From Escherichia phage nepoznato, in the sequence record NC_052658.1: DNA of 64,000 bases, one strand, 5' to 3'. Under the pieces are notes generated by a model that was given only the letters and a program-made list of their open reading frames with translations, ran no database searches and was not told where the DNA came from. How positions within the stretch are numbered: position 1 is the stretch's first letter; every line of letters begins with the position of its first letter. The position numbers and the translations under genes are program-made. This document shows, piece after piece, positions 54,927-60,013 of this stretch.

Positions 54927-55480
54927 ACGTAGCTGTTATTGCTCAAGCTATTGATTACTATGGACGGTTTGCGGAGATGTTGGAAGTCCCTTATCTTGTA
55001 GATGCAGATATCCTTGCATATACATTACCAGAAGGTAAAGAGGATCGCCCCTTGGGGCATCCTAATGGGAAGTTTTATGTTGCCAGTGCCGAGCAATCAT
55101 TCTTGCAAATGGAAAAGGATGGCTACGAGTTTATCGCTGGTCATCCCTACATGGCCCTGACACCATGTTACCGCACAGAGGAAGTGTTGGATGATTCTCA
55201 CTTCAACATCTTCTTGAAGCTGGAGTTGATTGAGTTCTATCCCAGCTTTGGTGAAGTGAAAGAGTATGCCGAAGAAATGCGATACTTCTTCTGGACCTAC
55301 TACAAAGTCCAAACAAGAATTGTAGAAACAGAAATAGGGCTTGACGTGGAAGACATGAATGGTTTAGAATTAGGGTCATTCGGAACAAGATTGTCCCCAC
55401 AAGATCATCCATATATTTATGCAACAGCCATAGCCGAACCTCGTGCATCTATGGCAATTAACAGGAGGAATCATGATTAA
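54923..55480 (+). CDS. hypothetical protein
   Basis: 185-aa ORF. Confidence 0.45.
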   Translation: MNVAVIAQAIDYYGRFAEMLEVPYLVDADILAYTLPEGKEDRPLGHPNGKFYVASAEQSFLQMEKDGYEFIAGHPYMALTPCYRTEEVLDDSHFNIFLKLELIEFYPSFGEVKEYAEEMRYFFWTYYKVQTRIVETEIGLDVEDMNGLELGSFGTRLSPQDHPYIYATAIAEPRASMAINRRNHD

Positions 55481-56858
55481 TAAATTTGCCCGTAAACAGG
55501 AAGTTGCTGAAGCAGCACGTCGCGCTGGTGTGTATGACAAATTGTGTGAAGGTATTGTGAAGGTGTATGGCTGGGAGGGAGAAGATGATCCAACCTGTTC
55601 AGGTGATTTTGCAATGAACGATATGACCTTCCCATATATTTCCTACAATGTCTCCACTGGTGAAATAAACGGTGTAACCAGCACCAGTGTTGATCGTTAT
55701 CCAGACGCAGAACAAACCACAGGAGGTTACATGTTAGATTTGATTCTTAAGAAATCAGGGTTATTGGGAATCGAAGACGTTTTCGTAGATGCAGATAGTT
55801 TATCATTAGGAGATGTTGTTAAACTACTGGTAGACTTTAGGTTTGCAACAGGTAAAAGCTTCTGGAAGCCAGAAGATGCTGAACGTTTGAAGACAATCGA
55901 TCCAAGTATGTATGAACTGCCACAATATAAAGATAAACAATTCCGCAAGGTTATCTTCTTTGATCGTCAAGCAGGCTTAGATGCAATGCATATTGAAGTT
56001 GGGGATTTACCACGCCCACACTCTGCTGCTACTGGTGATCGCGGCCTTGTAGAAGTCACGGCTCAAGAATTTAAAAATATGTTTGCTGCGAAATACGATG
56101 AAGCTGCGCCTGTGCCAAGTATTGAGGAGCAAGAGGAAGAACAGTTTGTAGCGGAAGATACTGCATTTGAATATCTGCCGAACACAGGTGTTATGCCTTC
56201 GGAAGATTTCGTGCAGGTTCGCTTCAACAATGGTCAAACAGATGTTGCTAAGGGAACAGTGTTCACTTGGAATATCGACAATCTGGAAGAGTGGGCGATT
56301 AAAGAATACTTCATTCTCCCGCGCACGGCAAAATACAACTATAATAATGGTGGACACCGCCCTTGTGGTGGTCACGTAGAAGTTCTCTTTCGTGACGGAA
56401 CTACGGATAGTGGATCGGCTACGCATTTCACTTGGGGTCATGTTGGATATGATCGGGATATTGTTGGTTGGCTTCCAACTAACAACCCTAAACCACGTTA
56501 CCGTAAGCCTCGTAAGAAGCCTCCGGTAGGTAAGAAGAGTGTCGTTCGTGTCCTCTACACTACGCAACAGACCTACACATTTAAAAATGTGGTAGACGTG
56601 CAAGTAACCGAGGAGCGAGTTTATATCCAATATGATCGTGAAGTTACAGAGGGTATCAAAGAATCGGTTACTACCGAAATTGAAAATAAGCTTGTTATGG
56701 CAATCATTGTGGAAGAAAGTAAAGTAGAGAACGGTAAAGCCTATACTGTTCGTGATAGCTTCTTGCGTAATATCGATGGAACCTGGGATTACAATGGACA
56801 CGATGGGACCGCTGTGAAGAACGGTAAGATCATGGGAAGACAATTCCTCTCCAAATGA
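55473..56858 (+). CDS. hypothetical protein (about 461 aa)
   Basis: Track ORF 55443-56858; start moved to ATG after AGGAGG. Confidence 0.5.
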   Translation: MINKFARKQEVAEAARRAGVYDKLCEGIVKVYGWEGEDDPTCSGDFAMNDMTFPYISYNVSTGEINGVTSTSVDRYPDAEQTTGGYMLDLILKKSGLLGIEDVFVDADSLSLGDVVKLLVDFRFATGKSFWKPEDAERLKTIDPSMYELPQYKDKQFRKVIFFDRQAGLDAMHIEVGDLPRPHSAATGDRGLVEVTAQEFKNMFAAKYDEAAPVPSIEEQEEEQFVAEDTAFEYLPNTGVMPSEDFVQVRFNNGQTDVAKGTVFTWNIDNLEEWAIKEYFILPRTAKYNYNNGGHRPCGGHVEVLFRDGTTDSGSATHFTWGHVGYDRDIVGWLPTNNPKPRYRKPRKKPPVGKKSVVRVLYTTQQTYTFKNVVDVQVTEERVYIQYDREVTEGIKESVTTEIENKLVMAIIVEESKVENGKAYTVRDSFLRNIDGTWDYNGHDGTAVKNGKIMGRQFLSK

Positions 56859-56868
56859 TAAAACTTAA

Positions 56869-56895
56869 AGGCGCACTTTGCGCCTTTTTTGATTT
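56869..56895 (+). terminator. intrinsic terminator
   Basis: AAGGCGCA-CUUU-GCGCCUU hairpin followed by UUUUU. Confidence 0.65.
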
Positions 56896-56961: not shown

Positions 56962-57834
56962 ATGAAAGATTTGTACCAAGATGTTTTTTCTTTTTTAGAT
57001 CGCACTTCAGAAACATACACTAGAGAGAATGCAAACAAACCTTCCCACCTTGTTAACACGCACAGGGATCTCTTGGCGGGGATTTTAAGCAAACATATGG
57101 CAATGACACAGATACTGCCAAAAAACTTGTCAGAATGGCATACAGAAGGTTTTGGACATATTCACGACTTGGATTATCTGCTCTCTCCTCTTACAAACTG
57201 TTGTCTTGTTAATTATCAAGATATGTTAGAGAATGGTTTTAAGATCGGTGCTGCACAGATAGAAAAACCAAAATCTATTGGAGTAGCTACTACAGTGCTA
57301 ACTCAAATCATCCAAGCTGTTGCCTCCAGTCAGTATGGAGGTCAGACGTGTGCGCACATTGATAAAGGTCTTAGTCCTTATGTTGAAGCCAGTTTCCTTA
57401 AAAACATGGAGATAACCAAACGTCGCTACGGTTGTTATGCAAGGAAAGAAGCCCTAGAAATGACCGAACAAGATGTATATGACGCTATGCAAACTCTTTT
57501 GTATCAGGTTAACACTTTAATGAGTGTTAATGGACAATCTCCTTTTATTACAATCAGTATGGGTCTGGATACCTCTGTTTTTGGCAGAATGATCACAGCT
57601 AACTATCTTAAAGTGCATAGTAACGGTCTAGGTAAAGATCATGTAACGCCTGTATTCCCTAAAGTTATTTTCTTTTTACAAGAAGGTGTTAACATGAAAC
57701 CTAGTGATCCTAACTACGACCTTAAGCAACAAGCTTTGGCATGTTGTGCTGATCGTATTTATCCAGATTTTATTTCTGTTCCTTTGAACAAAGAAGTTAC
57801 GGGATCAGCAGATGGTACCGTTACGAGTATGGGT
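56962..57834 (+). CDS. nrdD: anaerobic ribonucleoside-triphosphate reductase NrdD, exon 1
   Basis: Colinear with T4 NrdD N-terminal half (NANK, RDL.AGI.SKH, NCCLV, ENGFK.G.AQIE.PKSIGVAT, SPMG); track ORF stop lies inside the intron. Confidence 0.85.
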
Positions 57835-58604
57835 AAACTATAACTGCTCATGTAAAATCTGCCTAAACGGGGGAACTCTCAACAGAGACAATCCCGTGCT
57901 AAACGTAACAGAACTCCCAACACAGAAGAAGGGGGTACTGATATGAGAAAACAAATTCGTGATTTTGAAGGGTATGAAATTGACGAGCTTGGAAATGTTT
58001 ATTGTACCAGGTATAAGGATGAAAGAATCCTTCGCTCGTGGGAAGAAATAAACACAGGATACCAACTTGTCAGAATACGTAAAAACAAGAAAACTGTTTG
58101 CTTTCGGGTGCACAGACTTGTAGCTGAAGCGTTTTTACCCAATCCAGACAATTTACCTTATGTGAAGCATAAAGGTGACAATAGGAAAGACAACAGTGTA
58201 TACAATCTTGAGTGGGGATCTTGTCCAGACAACACGCAAGAGGGTTACGATAATAACTGTTATGCTTTCTACACAAGGTGTCACAGTGTAAAAGCTACTC
58301 ATAAGGCTACTGGTGAAGTTTTTTACTTTAAAAGTCTGAGATGTTGTGCTGACGCTTTAGGGTTGGACAGAAAAAGAATATCTGCAATCTTAAAACAAGG
58401 AGCACCAAATAATTATGATTATGAGTTCTGTTACGAAATGCCTAACGACTAGCTGTGATGAATGTAGCAGCGTAGGGTGTAAGCCTATGACACCCCAAAT
58501 GGTAGACATGCTTTAAGCATGAAGATATAGTCTGATCTGCATGGTGACATGCAGCAGCACGTAATGGTGCGGGAGTGGCCTTGCGAGCCACTTTGAACAT
58601 AATG
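57835..58604 (+). mobile_element. group I intron in nrdD carrying an HNH homing endonuclease ORF
   Basis: 770-bp insertion between SMG and CRSFLS codons; exon 1 ends in T and the insertion ends in G; boundaries inferred from T4 NrdD alignment. Confidence 0.6.
57943..58452 (+). CDS. intron-encoded HNH homing endonuclease
   Basis: GYEIDELGNVY...VHRLVAEAFLPNP...KHKGDNRKDNSVYNLEWG motifs typical of phage HNH endonucleases. Confidence 0.75.
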   Translation: MRKQIRDFEGYEIDELGNVYCTRYKDERILRSWEEINTGYQLVRIRKNKKTVCFRVHRLVAEAFLPNPDNLPYVKHKGDNRKDNSVYNLEWGSCPDNTQEGYDNNCYAFYTRCHSVKATHKATGEVFYFKSLRCCADALGLDRKRISAILKQGAPNNYDYEFCYEMPND

Positions 58605-59546
58605 TGTAGAAGTTTCTTGTCATACTATGCAACAGAGCAAGGAGAAAAATATGATGGACGATTCAACCTTGGAGTAGTTTCTATCAACTTGCCTCTGATT
58701 GCTGCGGAAGCGAGAAGTAAAGGAGAATCTTTCACCGATCTTCTTAATAAACATATGGAGATAGCCTACGATGCTCACATGCTACGTGTAAACCGTATCA
58801 GACATACCAAAGCATCTGAAAACCCTATTCTTTTCATGGAAGGGGCTTTAGCGCGTTTAAATGCCAATGATGAAATTGGTGTTTTGTTTGAAGGTGGTTA
58901 TGCTTCTATTAGTATTGGTTATGTAGGTCTTGCCGAAGCTTTGGAAATCCTTTATCCAGAAGAAAAAGATAAAAAGGAACTTGGTAAAAACATTCTGCAA
59001 CATATGAAAGATGTGTGTGCTGTGTTTAAAGAGCGATCTAAGCTGGCATTTAGTCTCTATGGAACTCCAGCAGAATCTTTGTGCTATAAGTTTGCAACAG
59101 CTTTAAATGAAAAATACCCAGGTTTGGTAGAAAGAGACTATCTTACTAACTCTTTTCATCAACCTGTATGGTTGGTAACAAATCCTTTTGAAAAATGGGA
59201 TTATGAAGCAGGTTTTGCACAGATTAGTAATGGTGGTAACATAAGTTATGTCGAAACACCAAACTTAAAGAATAACTTAGAAGCTTTGGAGACTTTAGTA
59301 GACTACGCTTATGAACATATTCACTATTTTGGTATTAATCAGCCCGTGGATCAATGCTTTAAGTGTGGTTTTCATGGAGAATTTAAGGCAACGGCTAAAG
59401 GGTTTGAGTGTCCTGATTGTGGCAACCATGAAGAAGAAACTATTTCTGTAGTTAGACGTGTATCAGGGTATCTTTCTGCTCCTAATTCACGGCCTTATAA
59501 CAAAGGTAAAATGCAGGAAGTTTTGCAAAGGGAGAAACATCTTTGA
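58605..59546 (+). CDS. nrdD: anaerobic ribonucleoside-triphosphate reductase NrdD, exon 2
   Basis: CRSFLS...NLGVV.INLP, TPAE.LCY.F, Zn-site CFKCG...CPDCG and glycyl-radical motif RVSGYL; joined product about 604 aa. Confidence 0.85.
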   Translation, partial: CRSFLSYYATEQGEKYDGRFNLGVVSINLPLIAAEARSKGESFTDLLNKHMEIAYDAHMLRVNRIRHTKASENPILFMEGALARLNANDEIGVLFEGGYASISIGYVGLAEALEILYPEEKDKKELGKNILQHMKDVCAVFKERSKLAFSLYGTPAESLCYKFATALNEKYPGLVERDYLTNSFHQPVWLVTNPFEKWDYEAGFAQISNGGNISYVETPNLKNNLEALETLVDYAYEHIHYFGINQPVDQCFKCGFHGEFKATAKGFECPDCGNHEEETISVVRRVSGYLSAPNSRPYNKGKMQEVLQREKHL

Positions 59547-60013
59547 ATTTTGCAGGATATGAACCTGTAGATCTTATTAATGGTGAGGGAGTTAGGTGCT
59601 CCCTCTGGGTTAGTGGTTGTAGCCACGGTTGTCGTGGCTGTTTTAACCAGAAAGCCTGGTCTTATTCTTACGGGGAACCGTTTACTCACGAAAATGTAGA
59701 GCAAGTTTTAAAAGATTTGTCAAGACCGTTTGTAAAAGGTTTAACAATTTTAGGAGGAGAACCATTAGATCCGCAGAATATTTACAATGTTAAAAGCCTT
59801 ATAGAAAAGGTTAGAGACGTTTATGGGTCAAGCAAAGATATAATGGTGTATACAGGATATACTTTTGAGGAAGTGCCTTTATATATTAAAAATCTTGTTG
59901 ACATTATTGTAGACGGAAAGTATGAAATAAACAATCCAACTACAAAACCTTTCAGAGGGTCAGATAATCAAAGATTATGGACCAAAACGGCAAGTGGTTG
60001 GCAATCAGATTAA
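59543..60013 (+). CDS. nrdG: anaerobic RNR activating protein NrdG (radical SAM)
   Basis: Cys cluster CSLWVSGCSHGCRGC near N-terminus; directly downstream of nrdD. Confidence 0.85.
   Translation: MNFAGYEPVDLINGEGVRCSLWVSGCSHGCRGCFNQKAWSYSYGEPFTHENVEQVLKDLSRPFVKGLTILGGEPLDPQNIYNVKSLIEKVRDVYGSSKDIMVYTGYTFEEVPLYIKNLVDIIVDGKYEINNPTTKPFRGSDNQRLWTKTASGWQSD

Follow-up and report, generated by a model that had tools for sequence, protein, structure and literature searches.

Why should nrdD, the gene for a class III ribonucleotide reductase (RNR), appear as two separate open reading frames (ORFs) in Escherichia phage nepoznato? Within the 64,000-nucleotide (nt) stretch of DNA analyzed here (sequence record NC_052658.1; hereafter, the window), the ORF list places these frames at 56962-57843 and 58575-59546, exactly where a preliminary description made from the sequence alone had put them. 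That description regarded them as the two halves of one gene, parted by a group I intron that encodes an HNH endonuclease. Our analysis leads us, with high confidence, to the same view: nrdD is most probably interrupted by a mobile T4-type group IA2 intron with an HNH ORF, and its exons would rejoin to specify a 604-residue NrdD. The features of nrdD, its intron and the adjacent nrdG that are located by coordinates below all lie on the plus strand.

With respect to the gene itself, the first and second ORFs match positions 1-263 and 263-562, respectively, of the Pfam NRDD profile, that is, as exactly colinear halves. The limits of the insertion were obtained from an ungapped comparison with the nrdD gene of phage ESCO13 (L001:501-2315), which served as the intron-less reference. 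Specifically, exon 1 is identical to ESCO13 at 873 of 873 nt up to position 57834, after which the sequences diverge, and the window gene is longer by exactly 770 nt, which places the insertion at 57835-58604. Exon 1 (56962-57834) comprises codons 1-291 and ends with ...T-S-M-G, its last base being T (57834). Exon 2 (58605-59546) comprises codons 292-604 plus the stop, and its first codon is the TGT of Cys292. The break between ...SMG and CRSFLS..., the T that closes the 5′ exon and the G that closes the insertion (58604), all of which the preliminary description had pointed out, are borne out by this comparison.

Joined at these positions, the exons encode a 604-residue NrdD with a single terminal stop, identical to ESCO13 NrdD at 602 of 604 residues. 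At the nucleotide level, identity to the intron-less ESCO13 allele is 100% for exon 1 and 98.3% for exon 2 when the conversion tract described below is excluded. Residues 7-603 of the spliced protein align in one stretch with residues 6-604 of T4 NrdD (PDB 1H78, E=1e-167), consistent with the colinearity with the halves of the T4 protein proposed at the outset. The predicted protein also contains the Zn site and glycyl-radical motif expected of it: the Zn-site cysteines CFKC/CPDC (C542, C545, C560 and C563) are located by motif at 59355-59420, and the RRVSGY motif carries Gly579 at 59466-59468, in a second half that matches Pfam Gly_radical with E=7e-28. In the computed alignment, Cys292 pairs with T4 Cys290, which we take to be the number of the finger-loop cysteine in that enzyme. 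Immediately downstream, the activase gene nrdG (59543-60013; Pfam Fer4_12, E=4.5e-42, and Radical_SAM), which encodes a radical S-adenosylmethionine protein, begins at a TTG that overlaps the nrdD stop. The features of a class III RNR, namely the finger-loop cysteine, the glycyl-radical motif, the four-cysteine Zn site and an adjacent nrdG, are all present. The insertion site itself lies directly 5′ of the Cys292 codon, inside the catalytic finger loop, whose cysteine starts the radical chemistry of NrdD (PMC4493059).

On an unspliced transcript, translation of exon 1 would stop three codons into the insertion at an in-frame TAA (57841-57843). Similar early stops are found in the nrdD introns of Vibrio phage F102, Salmonella phage NS7 and T4 (GGT↓TAA, AGT↓TAA; here and below, the arrow marks the exon boundary). 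After splicing, the exon junction would read ...AGUAUGGGU↓UGUAGAAG..., with AUGGGU↓UGUAGA at its center. An intein is ruled out as the inserted element, which is out of frame and contains stops.

The 770-nt insertion is, as judged from its predicted fold and covariation, a group I ribozyme of T4-type subgroup IA2 without P2. Rfam model RF00028 matches 58315-58554 with 39.3 bits (E=2.9e-8), and an ORF-less copy of the same intron from phage phi92 reaches 70.6 bits, above the gathering score of 50. This intron is the only group I match in an E-value scan of the 64 kb, and a tRNA search of the window found none. The helices were defined on the ORF-deleted window sequence and then tested on an alignment of seven homologues from five phage lineages (the window, HMD-6, TH18, phi92, Vibrio phage F102, Salmonella phage NS7 and the T4 nrdD intron core). 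Standard pairs occupy 95.5% of the cells of this alignment, compared with 34-45% after the partners have been shifted by 1-3 columns; changes on both sides occur in 35 of 84 pairs, and none of 500 shuffles attains the observed score. P1, P3, P4, P5, P6, P7, P8 and P9 are 100% paired across the homologues; in TH18 a U-A pair of P7 is replaced by C-G, a compensatory change, and P7.1 has double changes in four of its five pairs. The minimum free energy (MFE) fold of the complete 778-nt RNA, ORF included, fully recovers P1, P3, P4, P5 and P6 as well as P7.1, P7.2, P8, P9, P9.1 and P9.2, even though the strands of P3 are 643 nt apart.

The helices at the two splice sites fall exactly where such an intron would need them. 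P1 (57829-57851) pairs the exon end AUGGGU (57829-57834) with the guide GCUCAU (57846-57851), placing a U57834·G57846 wobble at the splice site, and all six of its pairs are present in all seven homologues. The intron strand of P10, CUAUA (57838-57842), can be read from the sequence as pairing with UGUAG at the start of exon 2 (58605-58609). P10 covaries as well, with GCUCUAUA/UGUAGAGC in Salmonella NS7 and GGCA/UGCC in Vibrio F102; intron-less alleles, which have UGUCGU or UGCCGU, would allow only two P10 pairs.

The remaining helices form two halves on either side of the ORF. The 5′ core half (57858-57911) consists of the P3 5′ strand (57858-57863), P4 (57867-57872/57892-57897), P5 (57877-57880/57885-57888), the P6 5′ strand (57898-57899) and the P6a 5′ strand (57904-57911), and is followed by a P6b hairpin, ACUCCC/GGGGGU (57913-57936), in the fold of the ORF-deleted construct. 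The 3′ half (58428-58604) contains P6a′ (58428-58435), P6′ (58440-58441), the P7 5′ strand (58447-58451), P7.1 (58452-58456/58467-58471), P7.2 (58475-58480/58490-58495), P3′ (58501-58506), P8 (58507-58512/58516-58521), the P7 3′ strand (58528-58532), P9 (58537-58543/58548-58554), P9.1 (58557-58560/58567-58570), P9.2 (58572-58579/58587-58594) and the terminal G58604. Folding the intron, a check that the preliminary description had suggested, therefore yields P1, P3-P9 and P7.1/P7.2, to which P10 is added from the sequence. In the classification of Michel and Westhof, P7.1 and P7.2 between P7 and P3′ are said to be the hallmark of subgroup IA; their presence together with the absence of P2 places the intron among those of T4-type IA2. 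Splicing activity would be expected of an RNA with these features.

The P6 loop holds the HNH endonuclease ORF (57943-58452, 169 aa), at the position given in the preliminary description. Its translation matches the PHROG HNH family phrog_59 with E=3.8e-34, and residues 3-166 match residues 4-172 of I-HmuI (PDB 1U3E), nearly the full length, with E=8.7e-9. These two matches settle the endonuclease family, and the product is a predicted I-HmuI-like HNH homing endonuclease. The putative catalytic residues H76, N88 and N97 align with H75, N87 and N96 of I-HmuI and are invariant in six sequences. I-HmuI, from the DNA-polymerase intron of Bacillus phage SPO1, is likewise encoded within a phage group I intron and shares the His/Asn/Asn triad and a C-terminal helix-turn-helix-like region; its chain in the PDB has 174 residues, similar in size to the 169 of the window ORF. 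The two proteins differ in host gene and target, identity in the PDB alignment is low, and Asp74 of I-HmuI is replaced by Lys75 in the window protein. Relative to the 85%-identical copy in HMD-6, the ORF has 48 synonymous and 16 non-synonymous codon differences, a ratio that indicates purifying selection on the endonuclease.

The ORF and the ribozyme are closely interleaved. At its 3′ end, the ORF shares ~8 codons with P6a′, J6/7 and the 5′ strand of P7, and its TAG stop lies inside the conserved AACGACUAG element. At the other end, the Shine-Dalgarno sequence GGGGGU, 6 nt upstream of the ATG, is the 3′ strand of P6b, a helix that is kept in HMD-6 through a compensatory change (ACUCCU/AGGAGU). 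P6b might thus, tentatively, sequester the Shine-Dalgarno sequence and regulate translation of the endonuclease. A scan for an internal promoter that could serve the endonuclease was uninformative, with nine sigma-70-like sites found and 8.5 expected by chance.

We compared the region with 50,697 phage records by megablast. The window belongs to a Phapecoctavirus and is 99.1% identical over the whole region to Escherichia phage nieznany. In most relatives the halves are fused and the query is covered to 70% in two pieces; of the 302 phage records that matched, just nine span 80% or more of the full 2,585-nt region. Fused, insertion-free nrdD genes occur in about 100 related phage records, and the split is therefore not a chance pattern. 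ORF-containing copies were found in the Phapecoctavirus genomes nieznany, 536P1 and DIJ07P2, compared with dozens of intron-less genomes, and the intron is sporadic within this genus. Related introns lie at the same Met-Gly↓Cys site in Justusliebigvirus, containing the ORF in VEcB but not in phi92, and in Vequintavirinae, where HMD-6 has the ORF and TH18 lacks it. The site is also occupied in Felixounavirus NS7 and Vibrio phage F102; in both, the intron contains a homologous HNH ORF that shows 47-53% protein identity (tblastn) to such ORF-containing copies.

In terms of mobility, the most telling comparison is that between genera. The introns of the window and of VEcB are 99.5% identical (766/769), compared with 72% for exon 1 and 78% for exon 2. 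Comparison of eight alleles further defines a co-conversion tract at 58605-58637, the first 33 nt of exon 2, in which the window has 10 synonymous differences from intron-less Phapecoctavirus and is identical to Justusliebigvirus. The Phapecoctavirus type is regained by +39, giving a tract of 33-38 nt. On the other side of the insertion, exon 1 of the window matches intron-less Phapecoctavirus up to the junction, where the nearest site informative for Justusliebigvirus is at -7. Co-conversion as a mechanism has been described for T4 (PMC2988022). A short, one-sided tract that is identical to Justusliebigvirus is the signature of endonuclease-initiated homing, and it points to a recent acquisition of the intron by homing from a Justusliebigvirus-type donor.

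The first six nucleotides of this tract, TGTAGA, occur only in intron-containing alleles among the eight compared; at this position intron-less alleles have TGCCGT in Justusliebigvirus and TGTCGT in Phapecoctavirus. The intron-less site is thus of the form …ATGGGT↓TGTCGTTCC… in ESCO13 and …TGCCGTAGT… in the Justusliebigvirus phage muut. Given that the change of TGC CGT to TGT AGA, three synonymous exon substitutions, creates P10, the intron would carry its own 3′-exon partner with it. A search of the phage collection for an intron-less allele with the intron-type 3′ flank gave 90.3% as the best contiguous match to the junction, and the best 40 of the 99 records that cover at least 80% of the junction are 87-90% identical, as expected without the 10 tract positions.

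In IMG/VR, 17 contigs (L012-L028) contain ATGGGTTGTAGAAGTTTC, an 18-mer equal to the spliced junction of the window, in an intron-less nrdD. Loss of the intron was rejected as the origin of these contigs: their flanks are identical to the window at 18-25 of 54 nt, they come from unrelated, AT-rich phages, and the shared 18-mer reflects coincidental codon usage. As a separate observation, such nrdD genes would offer the intron targets compatible with both P1 and P10.

The ORF-less relatives bear on the history of the element as well. The intron of phi92 (GenBank FR775895) occupies the identical nrdD site and has the identical 3′ flanking exon, but belongs to a genus other than the Phapecoctavirus of the window and has lost the endonuclease ORF. 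It is 279 nt long and 99.6% identical to the ORF-deleted core of the window intron. Relative to the ORF-containing copy, the phi92 form lacks 491 nt, cleanly deleted between two CTG repeats; in the window these repeats bound the ORF insert at 57938-57940 and 58428-58430, as GGGGGTACTG followed by ATATG and GAGTTCTG followed by TTACG. Such derivatives are common in Justusliebigvirus (phi92, PD06, ECGD1). The introns of some records of this genus (PD06, AMO3598) seem to be ~10 nt longer than that of phi92.

These observations are consistent with the following scheme. The transcript would fold such that the guide GCUCAU binds the exon end AUGGGU to form P1, exogenous guanosine would attack after U57834, and P10 (CUAUA/UGUAG) would align the 3′ exon for ligation after G58604. 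Ligation would restore the ...Met-Gly↓Cys-Arg... codons of the catalytic finger loop. In a mixed infection, the HNH endonuclease would, by analogy with I-HmuI, nick an intron-less nrdD near the insertion site, and repair templated by the intron-containing genome would transfer the intron along with a little of the adjoining 3′ exon. Both the nicking activity and the position of the nick are predicted from the same analogy.

Several observations weigh against this reading. The window copy scores 39.3 bits, below the RF00028 gathering score of 50, and an Rfam search of the whole window at the gathering threshold returned no match; the low score arises because the 490-nt ORF insert in P6 splits the model alignment. 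Two domain matches of the endonuclease fall just under their cut-offs, Pfam HNH_3 with 22.0 (cut-off 24.8) and the I-HmuI NUMOD-like domain PF22083 with 25.4 (cut-off 27). P6b is not formed in the full-length MFE fold, and its proposed role in sequestering the Shine-Dalgarno sequence is put forward only tentatively for that reason. In the paper on the 1U3E structure, Asp74 of I-HmuI, just before the catalytic His, is reportedly a second metal ligand. The equivalent residue is Lys75 in the window, and Lys also in HMD-6 and NS7, and it is Cys in Vibrio F102; with this replacement, the catalytic competence of the endonuclease is not guaranteed. Lastly, some GenBank records place a separate start for the C-terminal piece at a GGAG followed by TTG within P9.2 (58572-58583).

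The last of these observations belongs to an altogether different account, in which nrdD would be a split gene without splicing, its halves translated separately and assembling into an active enzyme. The pieces would then be an N-terminal protein of 293 aa ending in ...SMGKL and a C-terminal protein starting at GTG 58575 or TTG 58581. Several GenBank records do list two coding sequences, phi92 carries an annotated ribosome-binding site (GGAG) before the second piece, and the mobE-split NrdA of Aeromonas phage Aeh1 (PMC3653736) provides a precedent. Nonetheless, we consider this account very unlikely. It leaves aside a ribozyme that is complete, is supported by covariation and has its P1 and P10 precisely at the junctions, and an exon junction that recreates the intron-less protein exactly. 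The candidate Shine-Dalgarno sequence and start codon are, moreover, buried in the stable P9.2 hairpin, and the break would part Gly291 from the radical cysteine within the finger loop, where a viable protein split would hardly be expected. Still less credible is that nrdD is a non-functional pseudogene with a poorly splicing insertion. Growth in the laboratory may not require the anaerobic RNR, a consideration that is not specific to this gene; but neither exon has stops or frameshifts, the exons are 100% and (outside the tract) 98.3% identical to a functional-looking intron-less allele, and compensatory changes maintain all core helices.

The replacement of Asp74 bears more directly on a decaying element, in which the ribozyme splices but the endonuclease is inactive, so that the intron is inherited vertically or spread by general recombination alone. 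The Lys at the position of the metal ligand fits such a state, as do the ORF-less derivatives deleted between CTG repeats that are common in Justusliebigvirus, and I-TevIII of T4 is a precedent for a defective intron endonuclease (T4 annotation). We regard this as improbable, if less so than a split gene: the ORF is intact at 169 aa, its 48:16 ratio and invariant H/N/N triad speak for a maintained protein, and the intron is 99.5% identical across genera whose exons are only 72-78% identical. In addition, the short tract begins exactly at the insertion site, which is what homing would leave behind, not random recombination. Taken together, these observations favor a mobile intron with a homing endonuclease, as proposed above.

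Comparison with the T4 nrdD intron, another check suggested in the preliminary description, showed that the two elements occupy different sites and encode endonucleases of different families. Of the three introns of T4, that in nrdD (sunY) is the closest to the window intron, with 88% identity over 58 nt in the 5′ core and 78% over 121 nt in the 3′ half. The host gene is the same, the two ribozymes belong to one lineage, the guide GCUCAU is identical, and both introns lack P2, have P7.1/P7.2 and contain an early in-frame stop. The T4 intron, however, follows UAUGAGU↓ at codon ~179, whereas that of the window follows UAUGGGU↓ at codon 291, ~113 codons downstream. An identical insertion site is ruled out: T4 nrdD is broken near codon 179, between residues ~177 and ~182 in window numbering, where the window gene is uninterrupted, and the window gene is broken at 291/292, where T4 retains a vacant second site, CCGAUGGGU↓UGCCGU. 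The endonucleases differ as well, since I-TevII of T4 is a GIY-YIG enzyme (T4 annotation) encoded 3′ of the P9 region, whereas the window ORF is of the HNH family and lies in the P6 loop; the introns measure 1033 and 770 nt, respectively. The RB3/T4 nrdB intron with I-TevIII is also of the T-even IA type, in an RNR gene and with an HNH-family ORF (PMC2988022; T4 annotation), but its host gene is nrdB and detectable nucleotide similarity is confined to P7′-P9 (34 nt, 91%).

A speculative reading of these likenesses, which we think possible but would not favor, is that the window and T4 nrdD introns are sister ribozymes at two AUGRGU sites, separated by ectopic transposition and endonuclease replacement. 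The move might have occurred by reverse splicing guided by the 6-nt P1 pairing alone, or by illegitimate repair filtered for P1 compatibility; the intron would then have captured a new HNH gene that retargeted homing to the catalytic-cysteine codon. If so, the element has since spread over at least five lineages (Phapecoctavirus, Justusliebigvirus, Vequintavirinae, Felixounavirus and a Vibrio phage). Given the vacant second site in T4, the idea is directly testable, and such a pair in one gene would be useful for studying site change and endonuclease swaps.

Phage RNR genes have been known since the 1980s to harbor group I introns that encode HNH or GIY-YIG endonucleases, and our findings do not overturn the current understanding of such introns. 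The element itself is already present in databases, in the near-identical deposited copy of nieznany (99.1%) and in phi92, where gp192A is annotated as a 'spliced variant'. A literature search covering Phapecoctavirus, phi92, rV5 and nrdD introns, with the phi92 genome paper (PMC3457257) outside its scope, returned no description of the intron family, its site or its homing footprint; the rV5 paper describes a terminase intron only, and the Felix O1 paper reports no introns. What the locus adds is a clean natural example of inter-genus homing, with unusually clear traces of a putative recent jump between phage genera, and a further case of a selfish element placed exactly at a catalytic residue, here the radical cysteine of a class III RNR. 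It also calls for a correction of annotation. The ORF-containing copies in nieznany and VEcB are entered as separate genes plus a 'hypothetical protein', and these and many related records list two nrdD 'large subunit' genes for what is, on the evidence above, one gene with a mobile intron.

Other interruptions were seen in and around nrdD in related phages. In TH18 (L009:2233-2495), a second interruption of ~260 nt, between residues ~452 and ~444 in window numbering and around GTPAESLCY, may be another intron in the same gene. The nrdD gene of F102 (L010:1-1375) is apparently divided into three or more parts, the first detectable one of which is preceded by another HNH endonuclease gene, and in NS7 (L011:3120-3677) nrdD and nrdG are separated by a free-standing homing endonuclease gene. 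Several phage lineages seem to have a hotspot for homing endonucleases at nrdD-nrdG. Separately, records MG065639-MG065690, deposited as 'Campylobacter phage' with C. jejuni as host, contain an nrdD and intron identical or nearly identical to those of E. coli Justusliebigvirus and Vequintavirinae phages (for example, a 100% match to the phi92 junction query), and their host labels look doubtful.

Upstream of nrdD in the window, a strong bidirectional terminator-like hairpin (56867-56887; 9 bp with five G-C pairs, followed by a T-run) lies between nrdD and a preceding ORF of 461 aa (55473-56858), so that nrdD may begin its own transcription unit. This 461-aa ORF has no Pfam match. Its annotation in nieznany is 'hypothetical protein'; ESCO13 has it as 'class III ribonucleotide reductase', a name that is probably an annotation error.

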